The notes beneath the pieces are model-generated. The model did no database searches, was not told the origin of the DNA, and saw only the letters and a program-made list of their open reading frames with translations. Shown here in pieces: positions 12,014 to 50,585 of a stretch of 64,000 nucleotides of DNA; position 1 is the stretch's first letter; the number at the start of each line of letters is the position of its first letter. Source of the DNA: Planctomycetota bacterium (GTDB taxonomy: Bacteria; Planctomycetota; MHYJ01; JACQXL01; JACRIJ01). Position numbers and translations under genes: made by a program. The DNA lies in contig JACRIJ010000104.1 in assembly GCA_016220095.1 (NCBI GenBank), forward strand, positions 1,763 to 65,762, in the 5' to 3' direction.

Positions 12014-12031
12014 AAAAACAGGGGGTATAAT

Positions 12032-14139: not shown

Positions 14140-14155
14140 TGGCATAAATATTGCA
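14140..14155 (+). promoter_or_regulatory. Sigma-54 (-24/-12) promoter upstream of the cytochrome cluster
   Basis: TGGCAT-AAATA-TTGCA matches TGGCAY-N5-TTGCW. Confidence 0.75.
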
Positions 14156-15443: not shown

Positions 15444-15470
15444 CGTGCAAAAGAAAAATTTATGAATAAC

Positions 15471-15516
15471 ACAACAGCACCAAGATTGGAAAAACCTTTT
15501 GGTGCTGTTGTTTTTT
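15471..15516 (+). terminator. Rho-independent terminator after the omcS-like gene
   Basis: 13-bp stem ACAACAGCACCAA/TTGGTGCTGTTGT followed by a T-tract. Confidence 0.8.
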
Positions 15517-15574
15517 ACAGGGGTAATCCCCAAAATGGATATTGTTCCCAAAAGCATAAACCACGCTTAAAAAC

Positions 15575-16495
15575 ATGAAAAAACTTATAAAAACAGCAGT
15601 ATTATTAATTATGATGGCGGCCGTCGTATTTGCCGCCGAACGGCCCGGGGTTGTTTTCGTTCTTACAAAAGAAAAAAACAAGTTCAAGCAGTTATCCGCA
15701 ATGATGGTTTTCGCAAAGGACAAGGAAATCTACTTATGCGATTCCGAGGCCCAGAACATAAGGATATTTACGTTTGACGGCGCCGAGCAGACATGGTTTT
15801 CCGTCAAAAGACCCGCAGGTGTAACGAGAGATTCCGGTGGAAACTTTTATGTCCTTGAAACGGACGATAACGGGAGTAATTTTATAGGCATATACGATAA
15901 TAAATTTCAGAAAAAAAATTCCATAAAAATAACCGATTCGCCTTTTCCGCCAACCGAAAAATTCAGCCAGATTGCGATTGATAATGACGATAAGCTTTAC
16001 ATAACCGACGAAGGCAATAAAGTTGTCCTGACGGTGTCGGTGGATGGGAAATACCTGCGGCATTTCGGAAAATTTCCTCAGGAGGAAAACGGCAAGACAC
16101 TTCCGTCGATATCGGACATATGTGTTGACGGGCAAAACAAGAAACTCTATATTGCGGACGCAATTTCCTCTAAAATATACGTTTATAAACTAAACGGCAA
16201 ATATCTTTTTGAATTCGGCAAAGGCGGCGGCATTATGGGCGAACTCAGCCAGCCCTGCAGTGTGGCCGTGGATGCCGACGAAAACGCTTACGTGCTTGAC
16301 AAAATGCGTCACACCGTTATTGTTCACGACAAGGCAGGCAAATTTATTTACGAAATAGGCGGCAAGGGCGAGGCAGAGGGATGGTTTTATTTTCCGAGAT
16401 ATATAGCGATAGACCCCGATAAAAATCTTTATGTACTTGAGAGCATGATTAACAGGTTCCAGGCGCTGACGATTGAAAAGAAAAATGAAAAATGA
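15575..16495 (+). CDS. Periplasmic NHL-repeat beta-propeller protein
   Basis: Signal peptide; GELSQPCSVAVD and GWFYFPRYIAID NHL repeats. Confidence 0.85.
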   Translation: MKKLIKTAVLLIMMAAVVFAAERPGVVFVLTKEKNKFKQLSAMMVFAKDKEIYLCDSEAQNIRIFTFDGAEQTWFSVKRPAGVTRDSGGNFYVLETDDNGSNFIGIYDNKFQKKNSIKITDSPFPPTEKFSQIAIDNDDKLYITDEGNKVVLTVSVDGKYLRHFGKFPQEENGKTLPSISDICVDGQNKKLYIADAISSKIYVYKLNGKYLFEFGKGGGIMGELSQPCSVAVDADENAYVLDKMRHTVIVHDKAGKFIYEIGGKGEAEGWFYFPRYIAIDPDKNLYVLESMINRFQALTIEKKNEK

Positions 16496-17456
16496 CTCGG
16501 GTATAGAAAAAATTATAATGGTTTTGTTGATGCAGGCTTTCTTCCTCGGAAGCATTGTTGCGGATCAGCCGCCGGATGCCGGAAAGCGTCCGGTACAAAT
16601 ACGGTTTTCGTATTCCATAGACGGCTACAGCCGGAACATGCCGTTCAATTCACCCGCCGCATTCTGCCTTGACGAAAAACATAACGAACTGCTGATAGCC
16701 GATACCGGCAATAATGCGATAGGCATTTTTGCCGCGGATACCGGCGAATACAAAGGCCGGCTTGATTCCGCCGTGCCCCTGCAGGCCCCTTGCGGCATAG
16801 CAATAGACGCTGAAGACAGTATTTACGTCGCCTGCAGTGACAGTTCCGTGATAGAGATATTTGATTTTAAAGGCACAAATCTGGGCGGCATAGACGTCTC
16901 AGGCGCCGGGCAGAAAACGCCCGTAAAGCCCGGCAAACTTTACTGGGATGGTTTGGCGGAAGAGCTTTATGTGATTGACCGCGCCAACCAACAGGTGCTT
17001 ATCTGCAAGGACAGGAAAGTCTGGCAGAAAATACAGCCGCTTTCCGCGGATGCCGCCGGCAATGCGGATTGGAAGAATGCCCCCATGTTGCAGGATATTG
17101 CCGTAGATGACTGCGGAAAAATATACGTAATCAGTTCCATCGGCAATGCGGTTGCCGTTTTTGACCGCAATGGAAGTCCTGTAACGTCTTTCGGCAGGCA
17201 CGGCGATACGGCGGATACGGTTTCTTTTCCTGTAGCTGTTTCTATTGATAAAAAAAACCGTTTATGGATAATAGATAACTTCCGCCATTGCATCACTGTA
17301 TTTGACGCCCAGGGGAAATACATAACGGCCTGCGGCGCGTACGGGGCCGATCATGGAAACTTGTTTTTCCCGGTGGATATAATAGTCAAGGATGGCGCGC
17401 TGTACGTTCTTGAAAAAGGCGCGGAACGGGTGCAGGTTTTTGCGATTGTAGAGTAA
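16485..17456 (+). CDS. Periplasmic NHL-repeat beta-propeller protein
   Basis: FNSPAAFCLD, IADTGNN, VSFPVAVSID and LFFPVDI repeats. Confidence 0.85.
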   Translation: MKNDSGIEKIIMVLLMQAFFLGSIVADQPPDAGKRPVQIRFSYSIDGYSRNMPFNSPAAFCLDEKHNELLIADTGNNAIGIFAADTGEYKGRLDSAVPLQAPCGIAIDAEDSIYVACSDSSVIEIFDFKGTNLGGIDVSGAGQKTPVKPGKLYWDGLAEELYVIDRANQQVLICKDRKVWQKIQPLSADAAGNADWKNAPMLQDIAVDDCGKIYVISSIGNAVAVFDRNGSPVTSFGRHGDTADTVSFPVAVSIDKKNRLWIIDNFRHCITVFDAQGKYITACGAYGADHGNLFFPVDIIVKDGALYVLEKGAERVQVFAIVE

Positions 17457-17472
17457 TTTTGTATCTGCGTGT

Positions 17473-20340
17473 ATGAATAAAAGCATTTTTTTAACAATTT
17501 CGGCAGTAGTTTTATTATTGCCCGGTGCGGCATTTGCCGGGGACTATCACCGTGTGTGGGCGACTTCTACCCTGGTTTGTTCCGATTGCCATACCCTGCA
17601 CGCGGGTTCCGTGCCGTATCCGGTACTGCTCAAATACGCTACGGTAAACGAACTCTGCGCGTCCTGCCATGACGGTACGGATACGAAGGCGCCCGATGTA
17701 ATATCACCGGTGACAATGTACACGGGTGATGAACATTCCGGGGCCGGATTTTTTGCAAATACCGGAGGTTCCGCGAGCGATGTCGCGCACGACCTCGGCG
17801 TGTCGGCCGCAATTCCCATGAGTACCAAGCCGGCGATGACCCTGATATGCACTACATGCCACGATCCTCACGGGAACGGTTATTACAGAAATCTTAAGCC
17901 TGATCCGGACGGAGATACAAGCAATATAACCGTTACCATAGGCACAAATATGTTTCAGCAGAATTCACCTCCGATACCGCCGAATGCGGCAACTGTCGCC
18001 GATGCATATAAGGAGTCAAATATCGGATATAAATCCAACATCTCTGCATGGTGCAGTCAATGCCATGATAAACTTGCCTCTAATCAGGCAGGCACTCTCC
18101 CTTCGCATTTCAAAAGGCATCCCGCAGATGTTCCGCTTAATTCTGCCGGATATCATGCGGATACGGCCAACTGGATTACAAATCCGCTTGGAAATCCGAC
18201 AAGCGGCGGCGGCGTTGCAACGGGCGATGCGGTATACGGAATTCCACGGCTTAGATACCAGGTAAGTACCGCGACGGACTATGCGAGCGCTAAAACAGTT
18301 GCCGTTTCCAATCAGGTATTCTGCGGATCGTGCCATACGGCGCACGGTATGAAATACCAGAAAAACCTCGTTTGGCCGTACAGGAAACAGACAGGAATTG
18401 ACAATACCGATGCCTTTGCCGCATGTCAGCAGTGTCATAACCAGTCATATTGGAGTGGTTCTCCGCACGGAAACACCACAACCGGCGTGGCGCGTACTTC
18501 TTCCAATCCCACAGGGGCATGCAACCAGTGCCATGATATGCACGATGATGTTACATCTTACAATTACGCGCTTTATACGACAAATACAAATTCATTGTGC
18601 TTTACAACAGGTTGTCATGTAAATGCCTCTGCCAGCTACCCCGCGCAGGAGGCGGATCGTAATGCCGTGGGATACTTTACGACAAAACGCTGGCCTGGCC
18701 AGACTTCTTATGAAAACGCCACGTACTCTCAACACTATCTGGACGCGGACTGTATTTATCCCGGCAAAAGCTATTCTGCCGGCGATTGTAAGAATTGCCA
18801 CGACCCTCACGGTTCAGCCAATACCTATGATATGACCCTGAATACATATATAGACGGCGGCGTTTATACGAATTATCAGCTATGTTTTGATTGCCATAAC
18901 GAAACTACCGGGCCTGCGGGCATGAACATTGCCGGGAAATATGTAAAAAACCTGTATAGCATCGCGGATAACCAATCTGGGCATCAGATACGTAATTCCG
19001 CAAAATCAGTTTCAAATTTTGCAGGTTCCAAACTTGCCATTGGCGATAAACTGCCCTGCTACGACTGTCACGGGCCCCACGGTTCAAAAGGCAATAACGG
19101 CACCCAGCCGAACAAGAAAATTCTGAGTGATCAGCGCACAGGATGGTCAAATCTTGATACGGCTGTCGCCGCGAATAACCGTACGTTCTGCCTTGGTTGC
19201 CACGTCGCGTCCAACGGGGTAGCCGGTTCAAATACCGTGGAAGGCATAGCCATGAATACCATACCGGTATTTCCGTCAACCGGATTCCAGCCGCACGCAA
19301 CAACGGGCACAGATTCATGCAGTGACTGCCATGGCGATAATTACACGAACAACACGGCGCGAAATGCCCATCATCCGGATAATTCGGATTGTAAATTCTG
19401 TCATAATGCCGCGCAGGGCTCGCACAGGCAGGTAGTGCAGAACGGCGGTACGGGCGGCGATTTTGACGATACTACGCATCATATCGGGGATGTTGTGGGC
19501 ACGGAAAATGTTACGAATGCCGACTGTGTCATGTGCCATAAGCAAAGCAATCATCCATATACAACGGATGCCACGACAATCTACCTGAGAAACGTTGATA
19601 CCGGTGCGGCAATTACTTACGTAAGGGGAGACACCTCTTCGGCAAACCTGACGAATCTTGACAATTTTTGTCTTGCATGTCATGACGCTGCCGGCGCTAA
19701 TGGCGACACTACACCATTTTCGGATAATGCCGTTGCTCTGGATGTAAATGCTCAATTTAACACGGCAAATCCATCCCATCACGCCGTTAAAGGCGCAAGA
19801 TATACGCCGGCCGGCGCATCCGGTATTCTCGCAGCCGCGTTTGTTAACGGCTGGGCCGACAATAGCACCCTTCACTGCAGTGATTGCCATTGCACGGCAA
19901 CTAATGCGCACGGAGACGGCAAGGCTGTTGCAAGCAGGCCGTCTTTGATTAAAGGGTACACGTCGGGAACGGTCTATCCCGGCGGCACTGCCGGCGTTGA
20001 CGGGTACATCTGTTTTTTATGCCATGGTTACCTTACGTATGATACGCCTAATATAACGACACCGAATAATTCCAGGTTTGACCATAACGCGAATGGCGGA
20101 CATGCTACAAAGGATGTTTACAGGGGAATCTATTGTCTTGTATGCCACGGTGGATATGTTAAGGGTTATATACATGGAGAAAACGATACATCGGATATAA
20201 ATATAATGCAACATTTTCTGTCCGGCGCGGCTTTGCGCAGTTGGCAGAGATCCGGGGCAAATGAAAGCTGTAATACGACAGGCAGTATATCGGCATGTTC
20301 CCAGCATAACGGGGGCAAAACGTACGGTTATAATTACTAA
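17473..20340 (+). CDS. Extracellular multiheme cytochrome c (18 CxxCH + 1 CX4CH) with an N-terminal OmcS-like hexaheme domain
   Basis: Signal peptide; first six motifs colinear with 14472-15443; rich in T/N/G/A. Confidence 0.88.
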   Translation: MNKSIFLTISAVVLLLPGAAFAGDYHRVWATSTLVCSDCHTLHAGSVPYPVLLKYATVNELCASCHDGTDTKAPDVISPVTMYTGDEHSGAGFFANTGGSASDVAHDLGVSAAIPMSTKPAMTLICTTCHDPHGNGYYRNLKPDPDGDTSNITVTIGTNMFQQNSPPIPPNAATVADAYKESNIGYKSNISAWCSQCHDKLASNQAGTLPSHFKRHPADVPLNSAGYHADTANWITNPLGNPTSGGGVATGDAVYGIPRLRYQVSTATDYASAKTVAVSNQVFCGSCHTAHGMKYQKNLVWPYRKQTGIDNTDAFAACQQCHNQSYWSGSPHGNTTTGVARTSSNPTGACNQCHDMHDDVTSYNYALYTTNTNSLCFTTGCHVNASASYPAQEADRNAVGYFTTKRWPGQTSYENATYSQHYLDADCIYPGKSYSAGDCKNCHDPHGSANTYDMTLNTYIDGGVYTNYQLCFDCHNETTGPAGMNIAGKYVKNLYSIADNQSGHQIRNSAKSVSNFAGSKLAIGDKLPCYDCHGPHGSKGNNGTQPNKKILSDQRTGWSNLDTAVAANNRTFCLGCHVASNGVAGSNTVEGIAMNTIPVFPSTGFQPHATTGTDSCSDCHGDNYTNNTARNAHHPDNSDCKFCHNAAQGSHRQVVQNGGTGGDFDDTTHHIGDVVGTENVTNADCVMCHKQSNHPYTTDATTIYLRNVDTGAAITYVRGDTSSANLTNLDNFCLACHDAAGANGDTTPFSDNAVALDVNAQFNTANPSHHAVKGARYTPAGASGILAAAFVNGWADNSTLHCSDCHCTATNAHGDGKAVASRPSLIKGYTSGTVYPGGTAGVDGYICFLCHGYLTYDTPNITTPNNSRFDHNANGGHATKDVYRGIYCLVCHGGYVKGYIHGENDTSDINIMQHFLSGAALRSWQRSGANESCNTTGSISACSQHNGGKTYGYNY

Positions 20341-20343
20341 ATA

Positions 20344-21339
20344 ATGTTTTCGAAAATAATAAATAAACTCGCAATAATAATATTAATTGCCATCGCGGTG
20401 TTTCTGACAGTATTTGTGCTTTCTCCGCAGTGTTCCTTTGCGCCGTATTTTACGGGAGAAAAAATACGCCGGTGGTTTTTCATCGTGCTTGTTGCCGCTC
20501 TTTATATCGTTCTTACATTTTGTACGGTAGACCGTATATGGCGGCAGGTCAGGAGCAAATATAACAGCCCTTCCTGGTGGGGATCCATAATTTTTCATGC
20601 GAGTTTTTATGTAATAGTAACAGGCGCATGCATCAGTATAGGCGGAAGAAAAACAGGCCTGGAACTTTTTACGGAGAGCGAAACCGTAATTTTTTCAGAA
20701 AACAATTATCTTTTGCATGACCGGCCGCCTTTCGCAGTAAAATTGAACAGGTTTTTGCCCGTATTTGAAAACGACATGCCGGTTGATTACGCCTGCGATT
20801 TTTCAGTTTATTACGATACGGCAGAAGGATGGATGCAGGCAAGGAAGTCCGGCTTGAAGGTCAACATGCCCCTTGAAGAACAAGGGGTGTCTTTGGTGTT
20901 TAAGCGCTGGGGCTATTCCCCGAGGATTATAATTCGGGACAATGAATACAACGAAATTATCGGCATGTTTAACCTTAATCTCGGCGAAAAAATTGAGAAC
21001 GGGAATCCGCAAAAATTTTTTACCGATTTCACCAGCGTGCCAAATACCAATTTGAAATTGGAATTAAAATTTTATCCGGAAATGGAGAATGGGAAACATG
21101 TGCCCGCGTATACGGCGAGAAACCCCCGCATATACGCGAAATTGTATTCCGGCAAACGGGTTTATGTTGATGGTTATATTGCAATGAAAGAATCGCTTGT
21201 TTCCGATACGCTGACCCTTACATTTGACGATTTTAATTACTGGGTCGGCGTTGAGGTTGTCAACGACATCGGAGAAAACATTGTCTTTGCCGGTTTTGTA
21301 ATTGCCGTAATAGGATTGGCATTTAGAATGCTTTTTTGA
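20344..21339 (+). CDS. ResB/CcsB-like cytochrome c biogenesis protein
   Basis: TM helices with WGSIIFHASF, LKVNMPL, C-terminal DIGENIVFAGF TM; adjacent to ccsA. Confidence 0.75.
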   Translation: MFSKIINKLAIIILIAIAVFLTVFVLSPQCSFAPYFTGEKIRRWFFIVLVAALYIVLTFCTVDRIWRQVRSKYNSPSWWGSIIFHASFYVIVTGACISIGGRKTGLELFTESETVIFSENNYLLHDRPPFAVKLNRFLPVFENDMPVDYACDFSVYYDTAEGWMQARKSGLKVNMPLEEQGVSLVFKRWGYSPRIIIRDNEYNEIIGMFNLNLGEKIENGNPQKFFTDFTSVPNTNLKLELKFYPEMENGKHVPAYTARNPRIYAKLYSGKRVYVDGYIAMKESLVSDTLTLTFDDFNYWVGVEVVNDIGENIVFAGFVIAVIGLAFRMLF

Positions 21340-21385
21340 ACCAAACATTGAACTTAATTGAACCGGATTGAACAACGTTGAACAA
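21336..21385. repeat. TTGAAC tandem array (5 copies)
   Basis: ttgaaccaaacattgaacttaattgaaccggattgaacaacgttgaac. Confidence 0.65.
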
Positions 21386-21394
21386 TTTTAATAT

Positions 21395-22219
21395 ATGACA
21401 AACTTGGAATTAATATTATTAAAAATTACAATAGGTCTTTACCTGGTAAGTAGCCTGTGGCTGGCTGGCGGTTTTATTTTTAACCGTGAAAAATTAAGAA
21501 AATTTTTTGCATTGCCGGTATTAATCGCCCTTGCGGCGCATACGGCGGTGATTATTGTGCGCTGGAGCGCCACGGGCCACGGCCCGGTGATGAAGGACTA
21601 TGAAAACGCCCTGCTTGGCGCCTGGTTGACGGTGGCTTTATATTTACTGTTGGTATTCAAATGGCGCGAAATGGCCGTTATAGGCATAGTTATAGCCCCG
21701 CTCGCCATGCTCCTGCTCGGGTACGCGTTTATGACGGAACCAGTCCTGGAGCGGCTTTCGCCGGGGTATAAATCCTTTTGGCTTTACGTGCACGTATTTA
21801 CCGCATGGCTTGCGTTCGGCGCTTATGCGATCGCGTCCGGATTTGCAGTTGCGTTTTTTATGCGCGGTCATTATGACAAAAAATCCGTACAAACGAAAAT
21901 TCCAGAGTTGTCTGAACTTGATTTGACCGCGTTTCGCATAGTCCTTTTCGGATTTATACTGCACGCAATAATGATAGCCGCGGGTTCCATTTGGGCGGCA
22001 AAATTGTGGGGGAGCTACTGGTCGTGGGACCCGATAGAAACATGGTCGCTGATATCCTGGCTTTGCTACGGGATAATAATCCATTTGCGATTGGCCTTTG
22101 CCTGGAAAAATCAGAGGTTTGCCGTGATGATAATGCTGGCGCTTGTGACGGTTATAATAGCCTGGTTAGGAATAAACTGGATACCGTCAAGCGACCATGT
22201 ATTCAGCAAGTTGGAATGA
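21395..22219 (+). CDS. ccsA: System II cytochrome c synthase CcsA/ResC
   Basis: WWD motif WAAKLWGSYWSWDPIETWS; WLYVHV; C-terminal SDHVF His. Confidence 0.92.
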   Translation: MTNLELILLKITIGLYLVSSLWLAGGFIFNREKLRKFFALPVLIALAAHTAVIIVRWSATGHGPVMKDYENALLGAWLTVALYLLLVFKWREMAVIGIVIAPLAMLLLGYAFMTEPVLERLSPGYKSFWLYVHVFTAWLAFGAYAIASGFAVAFFMRGHYDKKSVQTKIPELSELDLTAFRIVLFGFILHAIMIAAGSIWAAKLWGSYWSWDPIETWSLISWLCYGIIIHLRLAFAWKNQRFAVMIMLALVTVIIAWLGINWIPSSDHVFSKLE

Positions 22220-22260
22220 TTACGGATTCTAAGATTGAAAGATTTTGAGATTGGAAGATT
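22219..22260. repeat. 8-nt xxxAGATT array
   Basis: gattacggattctaagattgaaagattttgagattggaagatt. Confidence 0.7.
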
Positions 22261-22267
22261 ATTGAGA

Positions 22268-23752
22268 ATGCTTAAAAACAAGAAAATACTGCTTATAACG
22301 CCGCCTTATCATTGCGGCGTTGTGGAATCCGCCGGCAGATGGCCGAATCTCGGCCTGCTTTACATCGCGGGTGAACTTCGTAAAACGGGCTTTGAACCGG
22401 TTTATTACGATGCCATGGCAAAATTCCATACAATGGAAGAGGTCGTGCGCACCATTAAAGATACACAGCCAGGCGCGGTCGTAATTACCGCTATTACCGC
22501 CACCATAAATACTGCACTGGAAGTTCTAAAGCACGTAAAAAAAATCGGTCCGGACATTATTACAGTGCTTGGCGGAATTCATCCTACCTTTTGCAGTGAG
22601 CAAATACTTCAGGAAAATACGGATATAGTTGATTTCTGTTGTATAGGCGAAGGCGAACATACATTACAGGAATTACTTCTTACTGTGGATGCCCTGCGAT
22701 GCGATTACGACAAAAACCTGCTTCAGGCAGTCAGGGGAATAGCTTTTATGTATAACGGTCAAGCCGTCAAAACTGCGTCAAGGCCGTTTATAGAAGACCT
22801 TGACACGCTTTCACCGGCCTGGGATATCGTCAACTGGAAAGACTATCCGCTTTACTTCATAGATAATTCCATAGTGGCAATAGTTTCCTCTTCCAGAGGA
22901 TGCACCAATCACTGCGCATTTTGTTCCCAGCATAAATTCTGGAACAGCACGTACAGAGAACGGGATCCCTGGAAATTTGCGGATGAAATGGAACTGCTCG
23001 CGGCGGAATACGGCATAAATGTTTTTTTCATAGCCGACGAATACCCCACCCGTTCCAGGGAACGCTGGGAGAAAATACTGGATATTCTTATTGAAAAAAA
23101 TCTCGGCGTGCACATATTGCTTGAAACTTGCGTAGCGGACATCATTCGCGATGCGGATATCCTGTGGAAATACCGCAAGGCAGGCATAATGTTCGTTTAT
23201 CTCGGCGTAGAATCCACAAAGGATTCCAGGCTTGAGATGTTCAAAAAAGACATAAAATTTGAACAGAGCCGCGATGCCATAAAATTGCTCAAGACCGCCG
23301 GAATGATAACCGAAAGTTCCCTTATTATCGGAATGCCCGACGAAACGCCGGGCACCATAGCGGAAACGCTTGAACTGGCGTTTCTCTATGGCACGGATTA
23401 TATGCATTTTCTGTTTATTACGCCGTGGCCTTACGCGGATATGTACGAACAGCTGAAGACTTTCATAGAGGAAACGGATTTTTCAAAATACAATCTTGTT
23501 GAACCGATAATACGCTCCAATTACATGACCCGGAAGGAACTTATGCAATCGGTGCTTAACTGCTATAAAGAATATTATTCCCGCAGGATACCGGAATGGC
23601 ATGCGATGCGCGGCGATGAATTCAAAAAACAATGTCTTCTGAAAGGAATGAAGGCTATAATGGAGAATTCATTCCTGAAAAAGCACATGCACGAAGTCAA
23701 GAGTTTTAAGTCCGGCGTTCCGGGGCCTGAGTTGCCGGTCTCGGGCCATTGA
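22268..23752 (+). CDS. Cobalamin-binding (class B) radical SAM enzyme, BchE-like fold
   Basis: N-terminal B12 domain (PNLGLLYIAG, LGGIHPTF, GEGE); SSRGCTNHCAFC CxxxCxxC; LGVES. Confidence 0.88.
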   Translation: MLKNKKILLITPPYHCGVVESAGRWPNLGLLYIAGELRKTGFEPVYYDAMAKFHTMEEVVRTIKDTQPGAVVITAITATINTALEVLKHVKKIGPDIITVLGGIHPTFCSEQILQENTDIVDFCCIGEGEHTLQELLLTVDALRCDYDKNLLQAVRGIAFMYNGQAVKTASRPFIEDLDTLSPAWDIVNWKDYPLYFIDNSIVAIVSSSRGCTNHCAFCSQHKFWNSTYRERDPWKFADEMELLAAEYGINVFFIADEYPTRSRERWEKILDILIEKNLGVHILLETCVADIIRDADILWKYRKAGIMFVYLGVESTKDSRLEMFKKDIKFEQSRDAIKLLKTAGMITESSLIIGMPDETPGTIAETLELAFLYGTDYMHFLFITPWPYADMYEQLKTFIEETDFSKYNLVEPIIRSNYMTRKELMQSVLNCYKEYYSRRIPEWHAMRGDEFKKQCLLKGMKAIMENSFLKKHMHEVKSFKSGVPGPELPVSGH

Positions 23753-26232
23753 TGTTCATGCTTAAAAAACTAATGAAATACGCAGACTATTTTTTGTTGA
23801 CAATATACGCAGTATTATTCATCGCATCTGCGGAAACCGTTTTTGCCGATGGCGATCTTTACGGTTCCATCAGCACGCGTTTTGCGGAAAACAAGGTCGC
23901 TGACGACATTACGTCCAGACTGTTTAATACGCTGAGTTTCGGATACCAGGATTCTGTATTGGACAATATCGCCGTGCAGTTTAACGGAAATATGACTTAC
24001 AGCGACGATGACCAGAAAAAATATGAAGATTTTATCCCGTGGTTCGGGCTTTCCCTGTCCAGAGACAATATCGCGTGTTCGGTAAATTACAGCGATTACG
24101 AAAACAAAAACTATAAGAACGCTTCGGGCATACTGTCAACATCCGTGCTTAGTACCGGCCTGAATTTTTCGCCGCAGGACCTTCCTTCAATCGGACTTAG
24201 TTATTCCGTGCGCCAAAGTGAAGATGACCTTTCGCCCAAGACAGCGGATAATAAAATCGCAACCTATACGATGAATACCAATTACCATTTAGGAATTTTT
24301 TACGCGTTTTACAACCGCAATAATAACAAATATACCAACAAAATCTCCGGATTTTTAACGATAACGCTTTCTTCCGGAATTTCTTATATTGCCACAGACG
24401 TATTGTCCGCGGTTTTTGTATCGGACACGGCTAATAACAGGATAGTTAAATATTCAAATGACGGAACATATATAAGTTCTATAGGCAATGGAGGCACTGC
24501 CTCCGCCGAATTCAATTCGCCAAAGGGCATATGCCTGGATCCGCAGGGAAATCTTTACGTGATAGACTCCCTGAACAGCCGCGTGCAGAAGTTTGATAAC
24601 GAAGGCAATTTTATACTGAAATGGGGCGATGCCGGTACAGGCAATGGCGAATTCAATACGCCATCGGGCATAGCTTCCGATGGCGTCGCTGTGTATGTAA
24701 CGGATGCCGGCAACAATCGTGTGCAGAAATTTGACCTGAACGGGGTTTTTGTAGCCATGTGGGGAAGCACAGGTTCTTCCGCTGGGGAATTCATAGGTCC
24801 GCAGGGTATCGCGGCGTATGGCTCTTCCGTGTATGTCGTTGACACAAATAATCATCGTGTGCAGAAATTCAGCGTTGACGGGAGTTTTCAACTTCAGTGG
24901 GGAAGCTCGGGAAACAATATAGGCGAATTTTTTATGCCGTCAGGAATAGCAGTGGATTCGGCCGGGTTCGCTTATGTTACGGATTCGGCAAACAACAGGG
25001 TGCAGAAATTCACAGGTACAGGTGGATTCGTGTCCCAATGGGGTTCGTATGGCGACCAGGACGGGCAGTTTGCTACGCCGTTTGGCATAGCAGCTGATCA
25101 GGGAAACAATATTTACATTACGGATCAAAATAATACCAGAATTGAAAAATTTTCATCTAACGGTATATTCCTGTATTCATGGGGCAAGGTGTATATTCCC
25201 AACGCGGCGCAAAGGACTGAAAACGTTCAGGATTCTTACGGCGTTGGATTTTCCTACCAGCCGTGGAATTTTATGAATATCAGCGTAAATACGAATTTCA
25301 ATTCGTCAGAATCTTTTAAGAATCAGGAAGTTACGGGAAAAGCTTTTCAGGAATCATATACCGTAATTTTGTCAATCAAGCCGGTTTCACCGGTAAATAT
25401 ATCATATTCATTTACAAGCCAGCGTTTACGCAATGAAAGCCAGTCCGGCCTGGAAACACAGCAGACTGACATAAACAGTACGCTTTCAGCAACGCTTGCT
25501 TTGCACAGGAATTTATCGCTGTCGTCCGGTTACGCGGTACAATCTGTTTTCGGCGACGGGCTTGAGGATGTTGACAGCACAACATGGCGCATAGGCATGC
25601 TTACACAGCCGTTTTCAAAACTTTTGGCAACCGTTAATTATTCTAATATTGTTGCCGAAAACAACGGCGAAAAAGTGTCGGATTCAGACAGCTTAGGGTT
25701 GTCCACGCAATGGAAAATGATGTCCAAGACCAGTTTAAACCTTGATTATTATTACAATTTTAATTATAATATACTTACAAACCAGGCATCGGTATCCAGG
25801 TTGATGAAAGCGGAATGGTTTGCTTCACCGGTGGAGAACTTCGTATGGAATCTCCGGTATGAAAAGAATATGGCCGAAAGCGAAGCAGGCAATGCCGGCG
25901 CCGATGCTTACAACACATATATATATTACATGCTATCGGGTGAAACTTCTGCAGGCGCGAATTTCGGATACAGGACAAATGAAAACCCGGCAGGCGATGC
26001 GGCAAGGTCTTTTTCGCAGACTTATACTTTTGAAAAGCGTATATCGGAAATAACGGATTTTTTTCTGTCATTTATAGCTGAATCAGGGACTTATTCCAGC
26101 CAGGTCATAAGCCCGAGGATAATGTTCAGGATTACCGATACCACGGCGCTTTCGTTGAATTCGCAAAAATTCCTGAAGGGGCCGTCGGAAGGCGATTATA
26201 CGATGTCCATGGAATTATCCATTAGATTTTAA
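23752..26232 (+). CDS. Putative outer-membrane beta-barrel with an inserted NHL beta-propeller
   Basis: Signal peptide; amphipathic aromatic strands flank ~6 NHL repeats (FxxPxGIA..YVTDxxNNRVQKF); C-terminal LSIRF. Confidence 0.72.
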   Translation: MFMLKKLMKYADYFLLTIYAVLFIASAETVFADGDLYGSISTRFAENKVADDITSRLFNTLSFGYQDSVLDNIAVQFNGNMTYSDDDQKKYEDFIPWFGLSLSRDNIACSVNYSDYENKNYKNASGILSTSVLSTGLNFSPQDLPSIGLSYSVRQSEDDLSPKTADNKIATYTMNTNYHLGIFYAFYNRNNNKYTNKISGFLTITLSSGISYIATDVLSAVFVSDTANNRIVKYSNDGTYISSIGNGGTASAEFNSPKGICLDPQGNLYVIDSLNSRVQKFDNEGNFILKWGDAGTGNGEFNTPSGIASDGVAVYVTDAGNNRVQKFDLNGVFVAMWGSTGSSAGEFIGPQGIAAYGSSVYVVDTNNHRVQKFSVDGSFQLQWGSSGNNIGEFFMPSGIAVDSAGFAYVTDSANNRVQKFTGTGGFVSQWGSYGDQDGQFATPFGIAADQGNNIYITDQNNTRIEKFSSNGIFLYSWGKVYIPNAAQRTENVQDSYGVGFSYQPWNFMNISVNTNFNSSESFKNQEVTGKAFQESYTVILSIKPVSPVNISYSFTSQRLRNESQSGLETQQTDINSTLSATLALHRNLSLSSGYAVQSVFGDGLEDVDSTTWRIGMLTQPFSKLLATVNYSNIVAENNGEKVSDSDSLGLSTQWKMMSKTSLNLDYYYNFNYNILTNQASVSRLMKAEWFASPVENFVWNLRYEKNMAESEAGNAGADAYNTYIYYMLSGETSAGANFGYRTNENPAGDAARSFSQTYTFEKRISEITDFFLSFIAESGTYSSQVISPRIMFRITDTTALSLNSQKFLKGPSEGDYTMSMELSIRF

Positions 26233-26237
26233 GGAGT

Positions 26238-26822
26238 ATGCTGATGATAAGAAATTATTTGCAAGGCGCTATAAAACAGGCAATGATTATACCGTTCCTG
26301 GTCATATTGATTGGTTGCAGCAGTGTTTCAAATTCAGCCTATCTTCATCCTGAATTTGATATGGCCGCAGTACGCAAGGTTGCCGTTGTTACATTTGCAA
26401 ATTATTCCAAAGAACCCATGGCCGGCGAAAAAGTGACCAATATGTTTTTTACCCAGCTTCTCAGCACAGGGCTTTTTGACGTGTCGGAACCGGCAAGGAC
26501 CGAGGAGATCATTAAGAAACACAAAAACGGCTCTGGTATTGATTTGCTTGTCATGCAGAAAATGAAGGAATCATTGAATATCCAGGCAGTTTTTATGGGA
26601 TCTGTGGATGAATATTCTTTTGCCTCCTTCGGCAGTAAAACCTATCCGCTTGTCACAATTTCCGCCCGGCTCGTGGATTGCGAAACAGGCACGATACTTT
26701 GGACGTCTACAATTACAGGTGACGGATCATCGTCCGTTCCGGTGCTGAATATTGGCGCGATAAAAACACTGCCGGAACTTGCACAGGCACTGTGTGTCAG
26801 GATTGTGAGCACTATAAAATAA
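26238..26822 (+). CDS. PelC/CsgG/DUF799-like lipoprotein
   Basis: Lipobox LIGC; VAVVTFANYS, GSVDEY, ISARLVDCETGTILW. Confidence 0.75.
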   Translation: MLMIRNYLQGAIKQAMIIPFLVILIGCSSVSNSAYLHPEFDMAAVRKVAVVTFANYSKEPMAGEKVTNMFFTQLLSTGLFDVSEPARTEEIIKKHKNGSGIDLLVMQKMKESLNIQAVFMGSVDEYSFASFGSKTYPLVTISARLVDCETGTILWTSTITGDGSSSVPVLNIGAIKTLPELAQALCVRIVSTIK

Positions 26823-26832
26823 GGGATAAAAC

Positions 26833-27591
26833 ATGAAAAAAAAATATCTGTTATTTTTGCTTTTTAATGCCGTTCTGTTTGCGCCGGGCGGATGTAGAAC
26901 ATCCAATGTAGTTTCTTCCGCTTCACAGCCTGCGGAAATAGACGCTTTTTACGTCAGAAGGATTGCCGTTGTGCCGTTTGACAACCTTACCGGTCTTCCG
27001 AACGATGCAGGCAGAAAAATTACAAATACACTCGTGGCGGATGTTTATTCCCGGAATGCGTTTGAACTTCTTAACAGCGGTGAATTGGAAGGCTTTCTTA
27101 CGGATGAAAGGATACGCTATTCTTCCGATTTTACCATGCAGAAAACACAGAAACTCCTTTCCAAATACAATGTGCATGCCGTGCTTCTCGGCAGTATCAA
27201 TGAATATTCCTACGCAAGCGCGGGTACGGAACAGCTTCCGGTAATAAGCATTTCCGCAAGGATGCTTGATACGCGTACGGCAAAAATAATATGGGCGTAC
27301 AATGTAACTGCCGAAGCGCGCGAAACGGCATTCGGATTGGGTTCTATAAGAAGCCTCGCTAATTTGACAGAACTTGCGATTAATGATATAGTTGACAGTT
27401 TAATTGCGGCAAAATCCGAAACCGCCTTATCCGGCAGTCAGGGTGCGGATGCCGTGCAAACGGATAGGAGTACGCCTGAAAATCCAAATGTGCAATCGTC
27501 CATAATAATTATAGATGAAAGTGAAAAAAATTATACCAGGGAAAAATCCAAAGAATATTGGTATAAAATAGTCAAAGACTACAAAAAATAG
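26833..27591 (+). CDS. PelC/CsgG/DUF799-like lipoprotein (paralogue)
   Basis: PGGC; IAVVPFDNLT, GSINEY, ISARMLDTRTAKIIW. Confidence 0.75.
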   Translation: MKKKYLLFLLFNAVLFAPGGCRTSNVVSSASQPAEIDAFYVRRIAVVPFDNLTGLPNDAGRKITNTLVADVYSRNAFELLNSGELEGFLTDERIRYSSDFTMQKTQKLLSKYNVHAVLLGSINEYSYASAGTEQLPVISISARMLDTRTAKIIWAYNVTAEARETAFGLGSIRSLANLTELAINDIVDSLIAAKSETALSGSQGADAVQTDRSTPENPNVQSSIIIIDESEKNYTREKSKEYWYKIVKDYKK

Positions 27592-27600
27592 CATTATAGA

Positions 27601-29289
27601 ATGAGAAAAAATACTATGAAAAAAACAATTCCTCTTTTGATAACTGCCATGCTTGCGGTAACAGTAATGGCGTTGCTTTCGTCTCCATCGCCTGCGCAGA
27701 TTGGCAAATCCTGTCTTGACTGTCATAAGGATATCAGCCTTCTTTTAAGCGAAAAAAACGTGCACCCCCCGTTCAATGTGAATTCCTGTGATTCCTGCCA
27801 TGATACTACCACGCATGGTCAGATGGTGGAAAACGGCCCCGCATTGTGTCTGACCTGTCACGATGGGATAAAAAAAGAAACCGGTTCGCACTTTCCGCAT
27901 TCGCCCGCAGAAAGCAACTGCCTGTCCTGCCATAATCCGCACGCATCGGCGAATTCCAAGCTTCTCATCAAACCTCAGGACCTGCTGTGCACTTCCTGTC
28001 ATGACGGCATTACGAAAAAATTAGCCGAAAAACACCTGCATGAGCCGTTTAAATCAAAAGATTGCCTGTCATGCCATAAACCCCACGGCAGTGATACGCC
28101 GCATTTGCTTACGGAAAAAACGCCCGGTTTGTGCACGCAATGCCATGACACATCCGATAAAACCATTGCGTCTGCGCATAAAGATATTTCTATAAAAAAT
28201 TCAAATTGTCCAGTCTGTCATAATCCGCACTCTTCTTCGGAGCCGAAGCTGATAGAAAAAAACCAGCACTATCCTTTTGAAACCGGCAATTGCGCTTCCT
28301 GCCATAAACAGAATGCGGACAGAATAGAACTTATTATGCCTGCGGATAAACTTTGCCGTACGTGTCACGGCAAAATCGGCAACGAACCGGAAAAAACATA
28401 TCATCATTCGCCTGCGGAAAGCGGTGAATGCCTGTCCTGTCACAATCCGCACGCAACGTCCAGGAAAAAACTTCTTAATGATGAAATTAACCCCGTATGT
28501 TTCTCCTGCCATTCTGACAAGCAGGAGCTTCTTGGCAAAGAAATCGTGCATCAGCCGTTTAAAAACGATTGCACGGCCTGCCACAGTCCGCATTCGTCGG
28601 CGCTTGCCGGACTGATAAAAAAGAACGCGGTAGACCTGTGCGGTACATGCCACGCGAATCTGCCGCTGGAATTCGCAAAAAAAACCGTGCATTTTCCGTT
28701 TAAAAACGGTTCCTGCATGTCCTGTCACAATCCCCATGCGTCATCAACGAACGGACTTCTCAAAAAAAACCAAAAGGAATTGTGCCTTGAATGCCATCTT
28801 GATATAAAAGCCAAGCTTGTGGCAAAACGGACGCATTCCGGCACAGGCGGAGATTGCACCGATTGCCATTTGCCACATAGTACGGAAACAGAATCTTTGC
28901 TTAATATTGATAAGGAATTGTCCTGTTTTTCCTGCCATCCGAAAGAGGATTTTACTGACAAAAAATACCAGCATTTTCCCGTTATGAAAAACAAATGCCT
29001 TACATGTCACGATCCGCATGGAACGGATTTCAAGGCAAACCTGAAAAAATCGGTAAATGATACCTGTACCCAATGCCATCCCGCACGGCATAAGGAATTC
29101 GTGCACTCCGTGGACGCATTGCCGTCCGAAAAAATTGATATGTCAGCCGAGGATAAAACCCGGCTTGACGCGGAGGGAAGGCTTTCATGCGTCTCCTGCC
29201 ATAGTCCGCACGGTTCCAGGAACCCGTTTTTCCTTATTGACGAAATGACGCAAGGACAGCTCTGTTACAGGTGCCACAAACAAAACTGA
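27601..29289 (+). CDS. Periplasmic doubled-CXXCH multiheme cytochrome c (22 CxxCH)
   Basis: Signal peptide; repeating HxP..CxxCHxPHxS...LCxxCH units; manual count 22. Confidence 0.92.
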   Translation: MRKNTMKKTIPLLITAMLAVTVMALLSSPSPAQIGKSCLDCHKDISLLLSEKNVHPPFNVNSCDSCHDTTTHGQMVENGPALCLTCHDGIKKETGSHFPHSPAESNCLSCHNPHASANSKLLIKPQDLLCTSCHDGITKKLAEKHLHEPFKSKDCLSCHKPHGSDTPHLLTEKTPGLCTQCHDTSDKTIASAHKDISIKNSNCPVCHNPHSSSEPKLIEKNQHYPFETGNCASCHKQNADRIELIMPADKLCRTCHGKIGNEPEKTYHHSPAESGECLSCHNPHATSRKKLLNDEINPVCFSCHSDKQELLGKEIVHQPFKNDCTACHSPHSSALAGLIKKNAVDLCGTCHANLPLEFAKKTVHFPFKNGSCMSCHNPHASSTNGLLKKNQKELCLECHLDIKAKLVAKRTHSGTGGDCTDCHLPHSTETESLLNIDKELSCFSCHPKEDFTDKKYQHFPVMKNKCLTCHDPHGTDFKANLKKSVNDTCTQCHPARHKEFVHSVDALPSEKIDMSAEDKTRLDAEGRLSCVSCHSPHGSRNPFFLIDEMTQGQLCYRCHKQN

Positions 29290-29294
29290 ATATT

Positions 29295-29744
29295 ATGAAA
29301 AAAAATATTAAAATCATTACATTATTGGCGGCAATTATCATTGCGATTGCCGCGGCTTTTTTTGCATTCGTGTTTGATAAGCCGGTTTCCTATAAGAACG
29401 GGGTTAAATCCGTTTCCATAACTGTAAAACACGAAATGTATAAGAATTTTTCGGAATCTCACACACTTAAGCCTGGAGAGCAGGTTTATATTCATGATAC
29501 GAATTATGTTTTTGTTATTACGGATTTTATGCCTGATTTCAGGATAAAAAGGCAGACTGGTGAAGCGTATTCCAGAACCGATGCGCCCGATAATCCCGCC
29601 GTAAAAATCGCGCTCTATGTTGAAAATGAAAAATTGGATGAAGCCTGGTATATCCTGAAAAAAAAGGATTATTATAAGGTATTTAAACCCGGCATTTATT
29701 TCGTTATAGATAATATCGTTTACGGAGACACCAAGTATGAATAG
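29295..29744 (+). CDS. Membrane-anchored hypothetical protein resembling a ResB periplasmic subdomain
   Basis: N-terminal TM; DFMPDF...SRTDAPDNPAVKI motif. Confidence 0.6.
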   Translation: MKKNIKIITLLAAIIIAIAAAFFAFVFDKPVSYKNGVKSVSITVKHEMYKNFSESHTLKPGEQVYIHDTNYVFVITDFMPDFRIKRQTGEAYSRTDAPDNPAVKIALYVENEKLDEAWYILKKKDYYKVFKPGIYFVIDNIVYGDTKYE

Positions 29745-31692
29745 AAAAAGACTCTTTATTTTTACAGTTCTTACGGCCTTTCTCTGCGCGGCATTTCTGC
29801 AATCGTGCCAGAACGGCACCAGGCCTGCGCCGAAAAAGAAAACATGCATGGAATGCCACGCGCATGAGAATATGCAGGATTTGATGAATAAAAAAGTTGT
29901 CCATGCGCCGTTCAAATCCCAGGATTGCGAATCTTGCCATGAAAGGCATTTATTCGGCGACAAATTGAAATTGAAACATTGGGACAGTAAGCTGTGTGCA
30001 AATAGCGAATGCCACGCCGATTATGCCTCTGATGCCAAGAAAGCGGTTTCCGAGGCGGTACATCCGCCTTACGCTAACTCGCCCTGCTGGCAGTGCCACT
30101 CTCCGCATGCCTCGGATTATCCGAAACTGTTGAAGGCGAAATCGCCCGACATGTGTTACGAGTGTCATGATAGAAGTGCGTATTCCGCGCAAAACGCGCA
30201 TACGCCGGTTAAAGAAGGCAAATGCCTGTCATGTCATGCCGCCCATGAGTCTAATAACAAAGGGCTTCTTCAAAAACCTGTAAACCAGATATGCGCCGAT
30301 TGCCATGATACGGGCACGGACAAAATGAAAACTGCGCATAATAACTTTAATATTTCCAAAAGCGCTTGCTCTTCCTGCCATACGCCGCATTCGTCCGCAC
30401 AAAAAGCCCTGTTAAAAAATACCGTTCACGCGTTTATTTTGGATAAAAACTGCGTTTCATGCCATGCGGATCCTTTGGCGCCGGAAAAACTGGTTAAACC
30501 CGTTAAAGAACTCTGTCTGTCCTGCCATGATAAACAAACAAATGAACTTTCGGATAAACATATACATAAGCCGTTCATTGACGATGATTGCCTGAAATGC
30601 CACGCCGCACATGCTTCGCAGACGGAAAAACTCCTTATTCTGCCCGTAAGCTCACTTTGTATTTCATGCCATAAACAGGAAACTACGCCCGATATGGCAC
30701 AGCATAAGCCGTATATGTCCGGAGATTGTTTGTCATGCCACAAGGCTCATTCAAGCGGCCAGTCGAAACTTGTGAAAGATAATCTTGAGCAAAACTGCGT
30801 CTCATGTCACGCATCCGTGACGGAAGAGCGGAAAAAATCCCATGTGCATAGTCCGTTTGGCGGGGATTCATGCCTTCAATGCCATAGTCCGCACCAGTCA
30901 AAATATAAATTCATATTAAAACAGGAACCTGGCAAATTATGTGCCGAATGCCACGAGGAAACCGTTGCGGGTGGCAGGAAAGAGACTTATCAGCATACGC
31001 CTTTTTATAATCAGAATTGTTTTACCTGTCATTCCGGCCATGCCGCGGATTATAAGGCTTTGCTTGTTAAAAAGGAAAAAGAATTATGCATGGATTGCCA
31101 TAAGAACAGTGCGTCTGAACTTATGGCGTCTTATCAGCATACGCCGGTTAAAAATGGCGAATGCTCGTCCTGTCACAATCCGCATAGTTCCAATATAAAA
31201 AACTATCTGAAAAAATATAAAGAGGCATTATGTTTCGATTGCCATCCGAAAATTACCGAAGAGCTTAAACAGTCCTCCAGGCACCAGCCCGCATTGCAGG
31301 GAGACTGCATAAAATGCCATTCTCCGCATGGTTCCGAAATCGAAAATCAGCTCCGGCGCGCGGATATGGGGTTGTGCACCCAGTGCCATCCCAACGTCGC
31401 AAAAGAGCTCCAAAAGAAATTTCCTCACCAGCCCGTGAAGGACGAAGAATGCCTTGAATGCCATTCTCCGCATGCATCAGCGCATGAAGCCCTTATGTCA
31501 GAGCCGGCCCCGGAACTTTGCCTGAAATGCCATAAACCGGACGCGGTTTTTACCGCCGCGCACAGGAATTTTGACGTGAAAAAGACAGACTGCCTGCAGT
31601 GCCATACGCCACACGCCGCGGACCAGAAAGGCCTGCCGCTGTCCCATCTGCATAAGCCGTATAAGGACGGGGATTGCTCGGAGTGCCACTGA
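29737..31692 (+). CDS. Lipoprotein doubled-CXXCH multiheme cytochrome c (25 CxxCH + 1 CX4CH)
   Basis: Lipobox LQSC; manual count, includes CANSECH. Confidence 0.92.
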   Translation: MNRKRLFIFTVLTAFLCAAFLQSCQNGTRPAPKKKTCMECHAHENMQDLMNKKVVHAPFKSQDCESCHERHLFGDKLKLKHWDSKLCANSECHADYASDAKKAVSEAVHPPYANSPCWQCHSPHASDYPKLLKAKSPDMCYECHDRSAYSAQNAHTPVKEGKCLSCHAAHESNNKGLLQKPVNQICADCHDTGTDKMKTAHNNFNISKSACSSCHTPHSSAQKALLKNTVHAFILDKNCVSCHADPLAPEKLVKPVKELCLSCHDKQTNELSDKHIHKPFIDDDCLKCHAAHASQTEKLLILPVSSLCISCHKQETTPDMAQHKPYMSGDCLSCHKAHSSGQSKLVKDNLEQNCVSCHASVTEERKKSHVHSPFGGDSCLQCHSPHQSKYKFILKQEPGKLCAECHEETVAGGRKETYQHTPFYNQNCFTCHSGHAADYKALLVKKEKELCMDCHKNSASELMASYQHTPVKNGECSSCHNPHSSNIKNYLKKYKEALCFDCHPKITEELKQSSRHQPALQGDCIKCHSPHGSEIENQLRRADMGLCTQCHPNVAKELQKKFPHQPVKDEECLECHSPHASAHEALMSEPAPELCLKCHKPDAVFTAAHRNFDVKKTDCLQCHTPHAADQKGLPLSHLHKPYKDGDCSECH

Positions 31693-31737
31693 ACGAATTT
31701 GAGATTTCAAATTTGAGATTCGTTATAAGGAGTTTAT

Positions 31738-33012
31738 ATGAAAAAAATCGCAATTGTTTCAGTATTGCTCGGTTCAACAGCAATGCTGATAGGCATTTCG
31801 CTCGCGCAGGAGGCGAAGCCTAAAGACAATATCGCTGAAATCTGCTACGGGTGCCATAAGGAACTCAGGGAATCCTTCGCCGGTAAAACTATGCACAAGC
31901 CGGTGGAAAAAGGGAATTGCACTGCCTGCCATAATCCGCACGCGTCCAAAGCCGAACATCTTATGAAGAAAACCGAATCCAAAACATGCCTTGCGCAGGA
32001 ATGTCACGCAGGACAAAAGGAACTTTTTGGCCGCGCCTTTCAGCATACGCCGGTTAAAAACGGTCAATGTTCTCCATGTCACGAACCGCACGCGTCTAAA
32101 GAAAAACACATGCTGAAAAAGGCGTCCATGGAAATATGTGCCGATTGCCACAATATTAAAAAAATGGCTGGAGACAAGACGGTCCTGCACGGACCTTTCA
32201 GGGATGGTCAGTGCCTCGCCTGCCATGACGCGCATTCGGGGAATTATTCCGGAAACATAATAAAAAAGAACGTGGATATCTGCACCGCATGCCACGCGGC
32301 AAACGACAAATTAAAAGAAAAACACGACCAGTTTGATATGTCTGCCGTGGACTGTACGATATGCCATTCACCGCATTATAGCGGTTATCAAAACATGCTC
32401 AAAGCGGTCGTGCACAAGCCGGTTGGCGAGAAGGCATGCGATAAATGCCATGAGAACCTGACAGGCAATAAACCTGACCCGAAAAAACTTGTTAAACCAG
32501 TGCCCGATTTGTGCTTTGAATGCCATGATAAAAAGAGCCATTCCGCTTCCAATGTGCATAAGCCTGACCAGGACGGCAATTGTCTTACATGCCACGAAGT
32601 GCACGCGTCTGATTTCAAACACTTGCTTAACCAGCGTACGCCGGATTTGTGTTTCAAATGCCACAAGGGAATGGAAAGGTTCGTAAAGATGCAGTATCCG
32701 CATAATCCGGTGATGAATGGCGAATGCAATGCCTGTCATTCGGCGCATTCGTCGGAAAACAAGAAACTTCTTGTTGATATGGACTATACAAAAATGTGTA
32801 TGGCTTGCCACAAAAAGCGTGACACGCACCCCGTGGACAAGATCGCGTCAAACACCATAGAAACATTTGAAAATTCACTGGTTAAACTTGATGCCAATCG
32901 TAAAGTGGTCTGCATCTCCTGCCATAATCCGCACGGGAGTGACGAGGAAAACATTCTGCACTACAACAAGGAAAGGGATTTGTGCATACAATGCCATAAG
33001 AAGGAACGTTAA
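31738..33012 (+). CDS. Periplasmic doubled-CXXCH multiheme cytochrome c (15 CxxCH + 1 CX4CH)
   Basis: Signal peptide; manual count, includes CLAQECH. Confidence 0.92.
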   Translation: MKKIAIVSVLLGSTAMLIGISLAQEAKPKDNIAEICYGCHKELRESFAGKTMHKPVEKGNCTACHNPHASKAEHLMKKTESKTCLAQECHAGQKELFGRAFQHTPVKNGQCSPCHEPHASKEKHMLKKASMEICADCHNIKKMAGDKTVLHGPFRDGQCLACHDAHSGNYSGNIIKKNVDICTACHAANDKLKEKHDQFDMSAVDCTICHSPHYSGYQNMLKAVVHKPVGEKACDKCHENLTGNKPDPKKLVKPVPDLCFECHDKKSHSASNVHKPDQDGNCLTCHEVHASDFKHLLNQRTPDLCFKCHKGMERFVKMQYPHNPVMNGECNACHSAHSSENKKLLVDMDYTKMCMACHKKRDTHPVDKIASNTIETFENSLVKLDANRKVVCISCHNPHGSDEENILHYNKERDLCIQCHKKER

Positions 33013-50421: not shown

Positions 50422-50585
50422 TGCTGAAAATATTTGACAAAAGGCTTGGGATATGTTAATATAGCATCGGATAATGAATTTTATCCGGTTATATGTCGTC
50501 ATGTGCTCGGACGATAGTGAGCGAAAGCGAGCAGGATATAATGACGCGTATAACAGCGCAAAGTTTATTGAAAAAGGAGAACCAT

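Follow-up and report, generated by a model that had tools for sequence, protein, structure and literature searches.

Three adjacent genes of a Planctomycetota bacterium probably encode that part of an OmcS-type cytochrome cluster which resides in the outer membrane. They lie in a 64,000-nucleotide stretch of assembly GCA_016220095.1 (contig JACRIJ010000104.1, positions 1,763 to 65,762 of the forward strand), which we call the window and in whose numbering coordinates are given unless another locus is named. The three open reading frames are tightly spaced on the + strand: a barrel gene (23749/23773-26232, with two candidate starts) is followed by the genes for two lipoproteins, A (26238-26822) and B (26833-27591). 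The product of the barrel gene is an outer-membrane protein of 819 amino acids (aa) with a signal peptide, a predicted 28-strand β-barrel and an NHL β-propeller placed between strands 9 and 10 (23773..26232), and the lipoproteins are paralogues related to PelC. We propose that this trio serves the export or anchoring of cytochromes in the manner suggested for OscE, OscF and OscG of Geobacter, and we give this reading, in which the function is assigned by analogy, a probability of about 60%. A preliminary description made from the sequence alone had called the trio a candidate nanowire secretion channel. The surroundings agree with this idea, since the trio is part of an OmcS-type operon and its gene order matches that of OscE/F/G in the literature; the export function itself stays at the level of an analogy.

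The barrel gene is likely to start at the ATG at 23773 rather than at the TTG at 23749, because the relatives begin at the ninth codon. The protein opens with a signal peptide, as read from the sequence (MKYADYFLLTIYAVLFIASAETVFA, followed by DG), and then consists of three parts: the N-terminal part of the barrel (residues 26-198; 23848..24366, +) has nine strands in the model, the last of which (176-198) is extra long; the propeller (residues 199-471; 24367..25185, +) has six blades; and the C-terminal part (residues 472-819; 25186..26229, +) adds nineteen strands, of which the first (472-498) is extra long, and ends in ELSIRF. The preliminary description had seen about 270 residues of NHL repeats that interrupt an amphipathic protein ending in phenylalanine, and both observations hold: the only Pfam family in the protein is that of the NHL repeats (PF01436, E-value 3e-36), confined to the middle, and the C-terminal residue is phenylalanine in 9 of the 10 rows of the barrel-family alignment. 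In the model, the propeller (predicted local distance difference test, pLDDT, about 84-95) is made of 24 strands (203-470) that form six four-stranded blades. In a comparison of the whole model with 48,161 PDB chains by VIA-align, it could be superposed on the NHL domain of TRIM71 (Z 41.5, root mean square deviation 1.3 Å over 260 residues, 35% identity), and the NHL domain of Thin was matched as well; propellers occupied all of the best 50 rows, which leaves the barrel part effectively unprobed by this comparison. The possibility that the inserted domain is a recent copy of a neighbouring gene was rejected: it is 26% identical to both free NHL genes of the operon as compared to 40-50% identity to NHL proteins elsewhere.

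The two flanks are predicted to form a single β-barrel that is interrupted by the propeller, as had been supposed beforehand. AlphaFold2 with a 10-row alignment yielded a model with a mean pLDDT of 80.3 and a predicted template-modelling score (pTM) of 0.47, and its DSSP string contains nine strands (28-198), the 24 short propeller strands, and nineteen strands (472-818), i. e. 28 barrel strands. By standard barrel geometry, we estimate that 28 strands would correspond to a backbone diameter of about 5-6 nm. No strands are longer than the two on either side of the insert (23 and 27 residues), and the hinges 194-197 and 473-477 are the sole internal stretches with a pLDDT below 50. With its signal peptide, the even number of modelled strands and the aromatic C-terminal residue, the protein has the traits of a classical outer-membrane barrel. 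A run with a 4-row alignment gave a mean pLDDT of 52.3, with the propeller modelled and the flanks below 50. The strand count of the C-terminal part is equal in both runs save one element: the poorer run has 18 strands and one helix where the 10-row run has strand 25. An independent model of the protein is found in the ESM Atlas (mean pLDDT 0.73). The C-terminal part of this model (477-819) aligns to clusters of barrels of 683-775 aa with template-modelling scores (TM, by query) of 0.85-0.90 and to MtrB/PioB clusters with 0.73-0.77, and its N-terminal part (26-200) aligns to large outer-membrane barrels with 0.70-0.79 and to an MtrB/PioB-family cluster with 0.73.

The likeness to MtrB/PioB, a model-to-model one, raises the question whether the barrel is part of a porin-cytochrome conduit, the alternative that the preliminary description had offered. 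It would then sheathe a neighbouring multiheme cytochrome, as MtrB does with MtrA, and pass electrons, and the propeller would dock an outer cytochrome. Like the MtrB/PioB barrels, the protein is very large and is encoded next to multiheme cytochromes: the 22-, 26- and 16-heme genes come directly after the trio. However, Pfam detected no match to PF11854 (MtrB_PioB) in the barrel protein at E <= 0.01, and the nearest Atlas barrels, which are unnamed or TIGR03016-like, have higher TM values than MtrB/PioB. Moreover, the inserted propeller and the lipoprotein pair set the trio apart from the MtrB/PioB systems: pairs of PelC-like lipoproteins are not known from the Mtr and Pcc systems. This makes a conduit an unlikely explanation; conduit and export are nevertheless compatible, and one barrel could do both.

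The second component of the proposed export or anchoring module is the lipoprotein pair. Lipoprotein A (194 aa; 26238..26822, +) has the lipobox ILIGC and corresponds in position to the first osc lipoprotein, and lipoprotein B (252 aa; 26833..27591, +) has the lipobox APGGC; both lipoboxes were read from the sequence. That the two are paralogues, as had been stated, is clear from 31% identity over 173 positions (E-value 1e-26). They had also been called PelC/CsgG-like, and here the PelC part stands firmer than the CsgG part. A matches the solved PelC chains 5T11 (E-value 6e-8), 5T10 (9.7e-8) and 9H80 chain C (4.3e-5), the match of B to solved PelC is weak (0.0081), and a six-row profile of A orthologues finds PelC among the solved structures with E-values of 9.5e-10, 1.6e-9 and 1.2e-7 (9H80_C), followed by GNA1162 with 7.5e-5. 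As for CsgG, both lipoproteins pass the Pfam family PF03783 (A with 30.6 and B with 27.8 bits at a gathering score of 20.8), a feature that they share with the pore of the curli system. Yet only positions 29-155 (A) and 10-163 (B) of the 210 profile positions are covered, and the solved structures listed at E <= 1 for A, B and the A profile include no chain of CsgG. A additionally passes the Pfam family GNA1162-like. Since PelC is listed among the solved structures and CsgG is not, a ring beneath the barrel seems to be the better analogy than a lipoprotein pore. Moreover, the lipoproteins need not form a pore because, unlike with CsgG, a separate barrel gene is present.

The relation to PelC is supported by the distribution of the family. 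A seven-row lipoprotein profile has matches in 198 of the 401 sampled genomes of the phylum, and it also picks the lipoprotein gene within true pel operons (E-values of about 2e-19 to 2e-21), which were verified by PelG matches (2.7e-124 and 1.1e-128) as well as PelF-type and TPR (tetratricopeptide repeat)-rich neighbours. Thus, the lipoprotein family is a close cousin of PelC. A search for related loci with a 4-row lipoprotein alignment returned one locus, L007. A and B represent distinct orthologue lines, since each scores higher with its positional counterpart in a metagenome locus with the same trio, L049: A of the window reaches 132 bits with A and 104 bits with B of this locus, B reaches 124 bits with B and 91 bits with A. 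All three B orthologues (window 27400-27591; L040, the corresponding locus of the related genome G026, 11222-11950; L049 3278-4093) carry a low-complexity acidic or proline-rich linker and the C-terminal motif K-x-[YH]-[WF]-x-x-I, and all three have an invariant ERIR in the core, whereas A has neither ERIR nor the C-terminal motif. Complex predictions with single copies, in which the C-terminal barrel part, the N-terminal barrel part and B were used with A as the partner, scored 0.00 in both runs; they were made without controls and weigh neither for nor against binding.

PelC forms a ring of 12 subunits under the PelB barrel, and PelB itself has a smaller barrel, with TPRs. The structures 5T11 and 9H80 contain 12 PelC chains each. 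The trio resembles the PelB-PelC pair (PDB 5T10, 5T11, 9H80) both in the sequence of the lipoproteins and in the adjoining position of a lipoprotein gene and an outer-membrane barrel gene. One might, therefore, think of a polysaccharide export pore of the PelB-PelC or the PEP-CTERM type that stands among cytochrome genes by chance, all the more as the best structural neighbour in the Atlas belongs to a cluster that is auto-named TIGR03016 PEP-CTERM-associated outer-membrane protein. Against this, the trio accompanies cytochromes in all three loci that were read. Family scans detected no glycosyltransferase, PelD-G or exosortase gene in the operon or the rest of the window and none of the Pel families in the operon, the operon does not resemble the true pel operons of the phylum, and TIGR03016 has no match in the barrel protein at E <= 0.01 in NCBIfam. 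Finally, there are two conserved paralogues here and one PelC in the Pel system, the 28 modelled strands come without a TPR part, unlike PelB, and the context suggests cytochromes rather than sugars as the cargo. Taken together, polysaccharide export is highly improbable.

The operon around the trio is an OmcS-type cytochrome operon. It comprises 15 genes on the + strand (14472 to 33012) with intergenic gaps of at most 131 nucleotides, and it is delimited by gaps of 440 and 556 nucleotides. The first gene (14472..15443) encodes a hexaheme OmcS homologue of 323 aa with six CxxCH motifs; the homology, which the preliminary description had assumed, is borne out by three stretches that align to 6EF8, including the N-terminal CxxCH region (E-value 3.6e-14). 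Then follow two free NHL propellers of 306 and 327 aa, which have signal peptides and lack a lipobox (15575..17456), a cytochrome of 955 aa with 19 heme motifs (17473..20340), ResB-like and CcsA-like cytochrome c maturation proteins (20344..22219), a BchE-like B12-binding radical S-adenosylmethionine (SAM) protein (22235..23752; TIGR02026 with 408 bits, under the cut-off of 481), the trio, and, in this order, a 22-heme cytochrome, a membrane-anchored protein of 157 aa, a 26-heme cytochrome (651 aa) and a 16-heme cytochrome (27601..33012). The heme numbers of the last three cytochromes agree with their counts of CxxCH and Cx4CH motifs and are the same as had been noted before. The operon contains 35 of the 41 Paired_CXXCH matches of the genome, and the remainder of the window is devoted to housekeeping (ATP synthase, gyrA, ligA).

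The osc cluster of Geobacter sulfurreducens was reportedly described by Shen et al. 2025 (Cell Chem Biol), a study that we know through citing papers. Passages of one paper propose that OscH functions in OmcS folding, that OscE, OscF and OscG function in secretion and that OscD functions in morphology, and they equate oscI with GSU2495 and oscJ with GSU2494 (PMC13194489). According to excerpts of another, GSU2495 is a 26-heme protein of roughly 70 kDa, and GSU2500-GSU2493 are an eight-gene block that is kept with OmcS-like genes (10.1101/2025.11.06.686851); GSU2497 is annotated as 'lipoprotein' in the table row of a paper. As far as these partial sources reach, the trio has the same order as OscE-OscF-OscG (GSU2499-GSU2497), i. 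e. a large barrel gene and then two lipoprotein genes, and the two operons share an OmcS-like hexaheme cytochrome, a 26-heme cytochrome, NHL propellers and cytochrome maturation genes, as well as the proposed role in the export or mounting of cytochrome filaments. We suggest that the barrel is the counterpart of OscE and that the lipoproteins are those of OscF and OscG. On the other hand, the systems differ: the operon studied here has its propeller within the barrel polypeptide, no peptidyl-prolyl isomerase (PPIase), a B12-radical SAM gene directly 5' of the barrel gene, and a host from the Planctomycetota. The idea of an export module made of a barrel and lipoproteins is already published for Geobacter, as seen in the same partial sources; the present module appears to be a new form of it, with the propeller inside the barrel, the paired PelC-like lipoproteins, the radical SAM neighbour and a new host lineage.

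The trio is kept as a unit in all three loci with readable DNA, the window, L040 of the genome G026, and L049. In G026, the radical SAM gene is followed by the fused barrel, A, B and the 22-heme gene, with CcsA and the 26-heme cytochrome further on, and about 0.8 kb separate the radical SAM gene from an OmcS-like gene (46% identity) on the opposite strand of the same contig. In L049, the fused barrel, A and B are followed by a HAMP-type protein, two small multiheme cytochromes, a histidine kinase and a sigma-54 regulator, and the contig breaks off immediately upstream. The protein of G026 is 37% identical over the signal peptide, the N-terminal barrel part and the propeller (first 490 residues). 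Its C-terminal barrel part (L040 9608-10621 vs window 25201-26232) is only 15% identical and was missed by phmmer, and the C-terminal part thus evolves much faster than the other parts in this pair.

The fused barrel is rare. A full-length homologue search gave 4410 matches, mostly NHL proteins, and the whole protein was covered in two of the 120 matches listed. With the C-terminal barrel part, two proteins were found among 3512 word-sharing candidates, and an exhaustive HMMER search returned three of 1,835,955,588 representatives: P0002 (79%), P0121 (21%) and P0122, a protein of 2685 aa that aligns in 11 short stretches and is treated as a doubtful match. P0121 and the window protein align along their entire length, with 30% identity over 809 positions, and the 90% cluster of P0121 has two members labelled Candidatus Omnitrophica/Omnitrophota. 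Among 41 related genomes, the C-terminal part matched only G000. A profile of the N-terminal part matched two of 56 genomes of the class and two of the 401 sampled genomes of the phylum, both times G000 and G026, and a metagenome scan with this part identified one locus, L049.

Several points weigh against the assignment of the trio to an OscEFG-type module. The barrel flanks have no match to any Pfam or NCBIfam family, with NCBIfam giving propeller-type partial matches only. The pTM is 0.47, and of the five AlphaFold2 models from the 10-row alignment (mean pLDDT 80.3, 73.6, 70.6, 51.0 and 47.3) two are low scorers. The strand layout was read from the DSSP string, and the closure of the barrel, the width of its lumen and the position of the propeller with respect to the barrel are deductions from strand data, not observations. 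Among the domain matches of the operon, no rotamase/PPIase as the counterpart of OscH was found. Finally, the equation with OscE, OscF and OscG is based on synteny, on the domains present and on what citing papers say about the osc proteins. With regard to the PPIase, clusters in two other genomes of the phylum (L041 10087-15760, L042 277-10336) differ from the window operon: they have two or three tandem PelC-like lipoproteins together with a PPIase and a 26-heme cytochrome, the PPIase adjoining the lipoproteins and the 26-heme gene in both, and L042 additionally carries an OmcS-like gene. No fused barrel adjoins these clusters within the stretch examined.

A further issue is the side of the membrane on which the propeller is located. 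In classical outer-membrane barrels, both termini are periplasmic. With nine strands before the insert and nineteen, an odd number, between the insert and a periplasmic C-terminus, the propeller would be in an extracellular loop (loop 5). Moreover, it sits on an extra-long hairpin, and in known barrels it is on the extracellular side that long hairpins protrude. The cell-surface side is, therefore, the likely one for the modelled protein. Three considerations argue in the opposite direction. First, the other loops of the modelled barrel comprise only 2-7 residues each, so that loop length marks no side. Second, by our own reading of the alignment, the seven indel sites of the family are not restricted to one side: five are in modelled extracellular loops, and two are in turns modelled as periplasmic. 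Finally, the passage of a folded propeller of about 270 residues across the outer membrane is unexplained. A folded domain of 30 kDa is easier to keep in the periplasm than to translocate, and the propeller of an otherwise identical module might hang there as a chaperone or scaffold beside the lipoprotein ring, similar to the free propellers of osc-type clusters. This arrangement is possible but rather doubtful, as it conflicts with the strand parity, on which the first, low-confidence run is nearly concordant (18 strands, with a helix in place of strand 25), and with the long hairpin.

With the propeller on the surface, the trio may work as follows: the 28-strand barrel would be the passage or the anchor that takes the hexaheme OmcS homologue, and perhaps large multiheme cytochromes, to the cell surface. 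The PelC-like pair would be anchored to the outer membrane on its inner leaflet and would encircle the barrel on the periplasmic side, comparable to PelC below PelB, and this ring is probably a mixed A/B ring since the two paralogues are kept as a pair. The propeller, on the long hairpin between strands 9 and 10 and at the surface by strand parity, could hold or organise the emerging cytochrome; the preliminary description had suggested that it may template polymerisation. It is tempting to go one step further and to read the fusion as a Rosetta stone for the propellers of OmcS-type systems. Their site of action would be the barrel, and the propeller would be a base plate at the outer mouth of the 28-strand pore that captures hexahemes and starts or anchors the filament, fed from below by the mixed A/B ring. 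This extended picture is tentative and, in all its details, rather improbable.

The environment of the trio deserves a few additional remarks. In the 440-nucleotide gap before the OmcS-like gene, there is a sigma-54-type -24/-12 site (TGGCATAAATATTGCA, 14140..14155, +). It is the sole match in the window; with 0.21 matches expected and at least one match in 20 of 100 shuffled sequences, it is statistically weak alone. A histidine kinase and a sigma-54 activator are encoded at 2062-4913, and the last genes of L049 are likewise those of a kinase and a sigma-54 regulator. The radical SAM gene is located directly 5' of the fused barrel gene both in the window (22235-23752) and in G026 (L040 6126-7730); the enzyme might modify cytochrome or heme, and the available passages on the osc cluster mention no radical SAM enzyme. 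G026 has three further OmcS-like genes on its contigs C10, C110 and C191, with 34-45% identity to the one of the window. Upstream of the operon (7673-12622), an FG-GAP repeat protein of 1446 aa with a lipobox-like N-terminus and a secreted protein of 196 aa without a known family are encoded, and a second FG-GAP protein is found at 61599-62678. The region 50000-54000 is a low-GC island (0.36-0.38 vs about 0.45-0.50) with two DNA methyltransferase genes and several family-less open reading frames, probably a restriction-modification or mobile insert. Among the sequencing runs searched for the locus, the only one that covers it in full is a groundwater metagenome run, which may be its source, and the runs listed include no RNA run.

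How cytochrome nanowires cross the outer membrane and stay on it is an open question. As stated in passages of the paper that poses it, most OmcE and OmcS regions contain large β-barrels, propeller lipoproteins also accompany OmcE and OmcS genes, and a porin-like pathway is proposed, such a mounting being now favoured (PMC13712944). Other sources, again available in part, report NHL propellers among outer-membrane cytochrome genes and propose that they hold or stabilise complexes: this is the case for the DFE clusters of D. ferrophilus IS5, UetH/UetI of Ca. Tenderia, and Gmet_0556. As far as these sources go, the role of the propellers in electron-transfer clusters has so far been guesswork. 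These propellers are separate proteins, in contrast to the one described here, which is covalently embedded in the barrel. In the literature searched, no barrel is described that has a propeller inserted into it, the key osc paper and its supplements being outside this search. The covalent link is conserved, at 30% identity, between proteins that bear two phylum labels, and this argues that the propellers of such clusters act at the barrel. The fusion argues that propeller and barrel work in contact, and it suggests on which side they do so. As one polypeptide, the two could also be expressed and imaged together. Our work extends the OmcS-type clusters to a Planctomycetota genome from groundwater, with relatives of the fused barrel that are labelled Candidatus Omnitrophota. 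If the base-plate picture were true, it would be the first concrete architecture for the mounting of a cytochrome nanowire on the cell.

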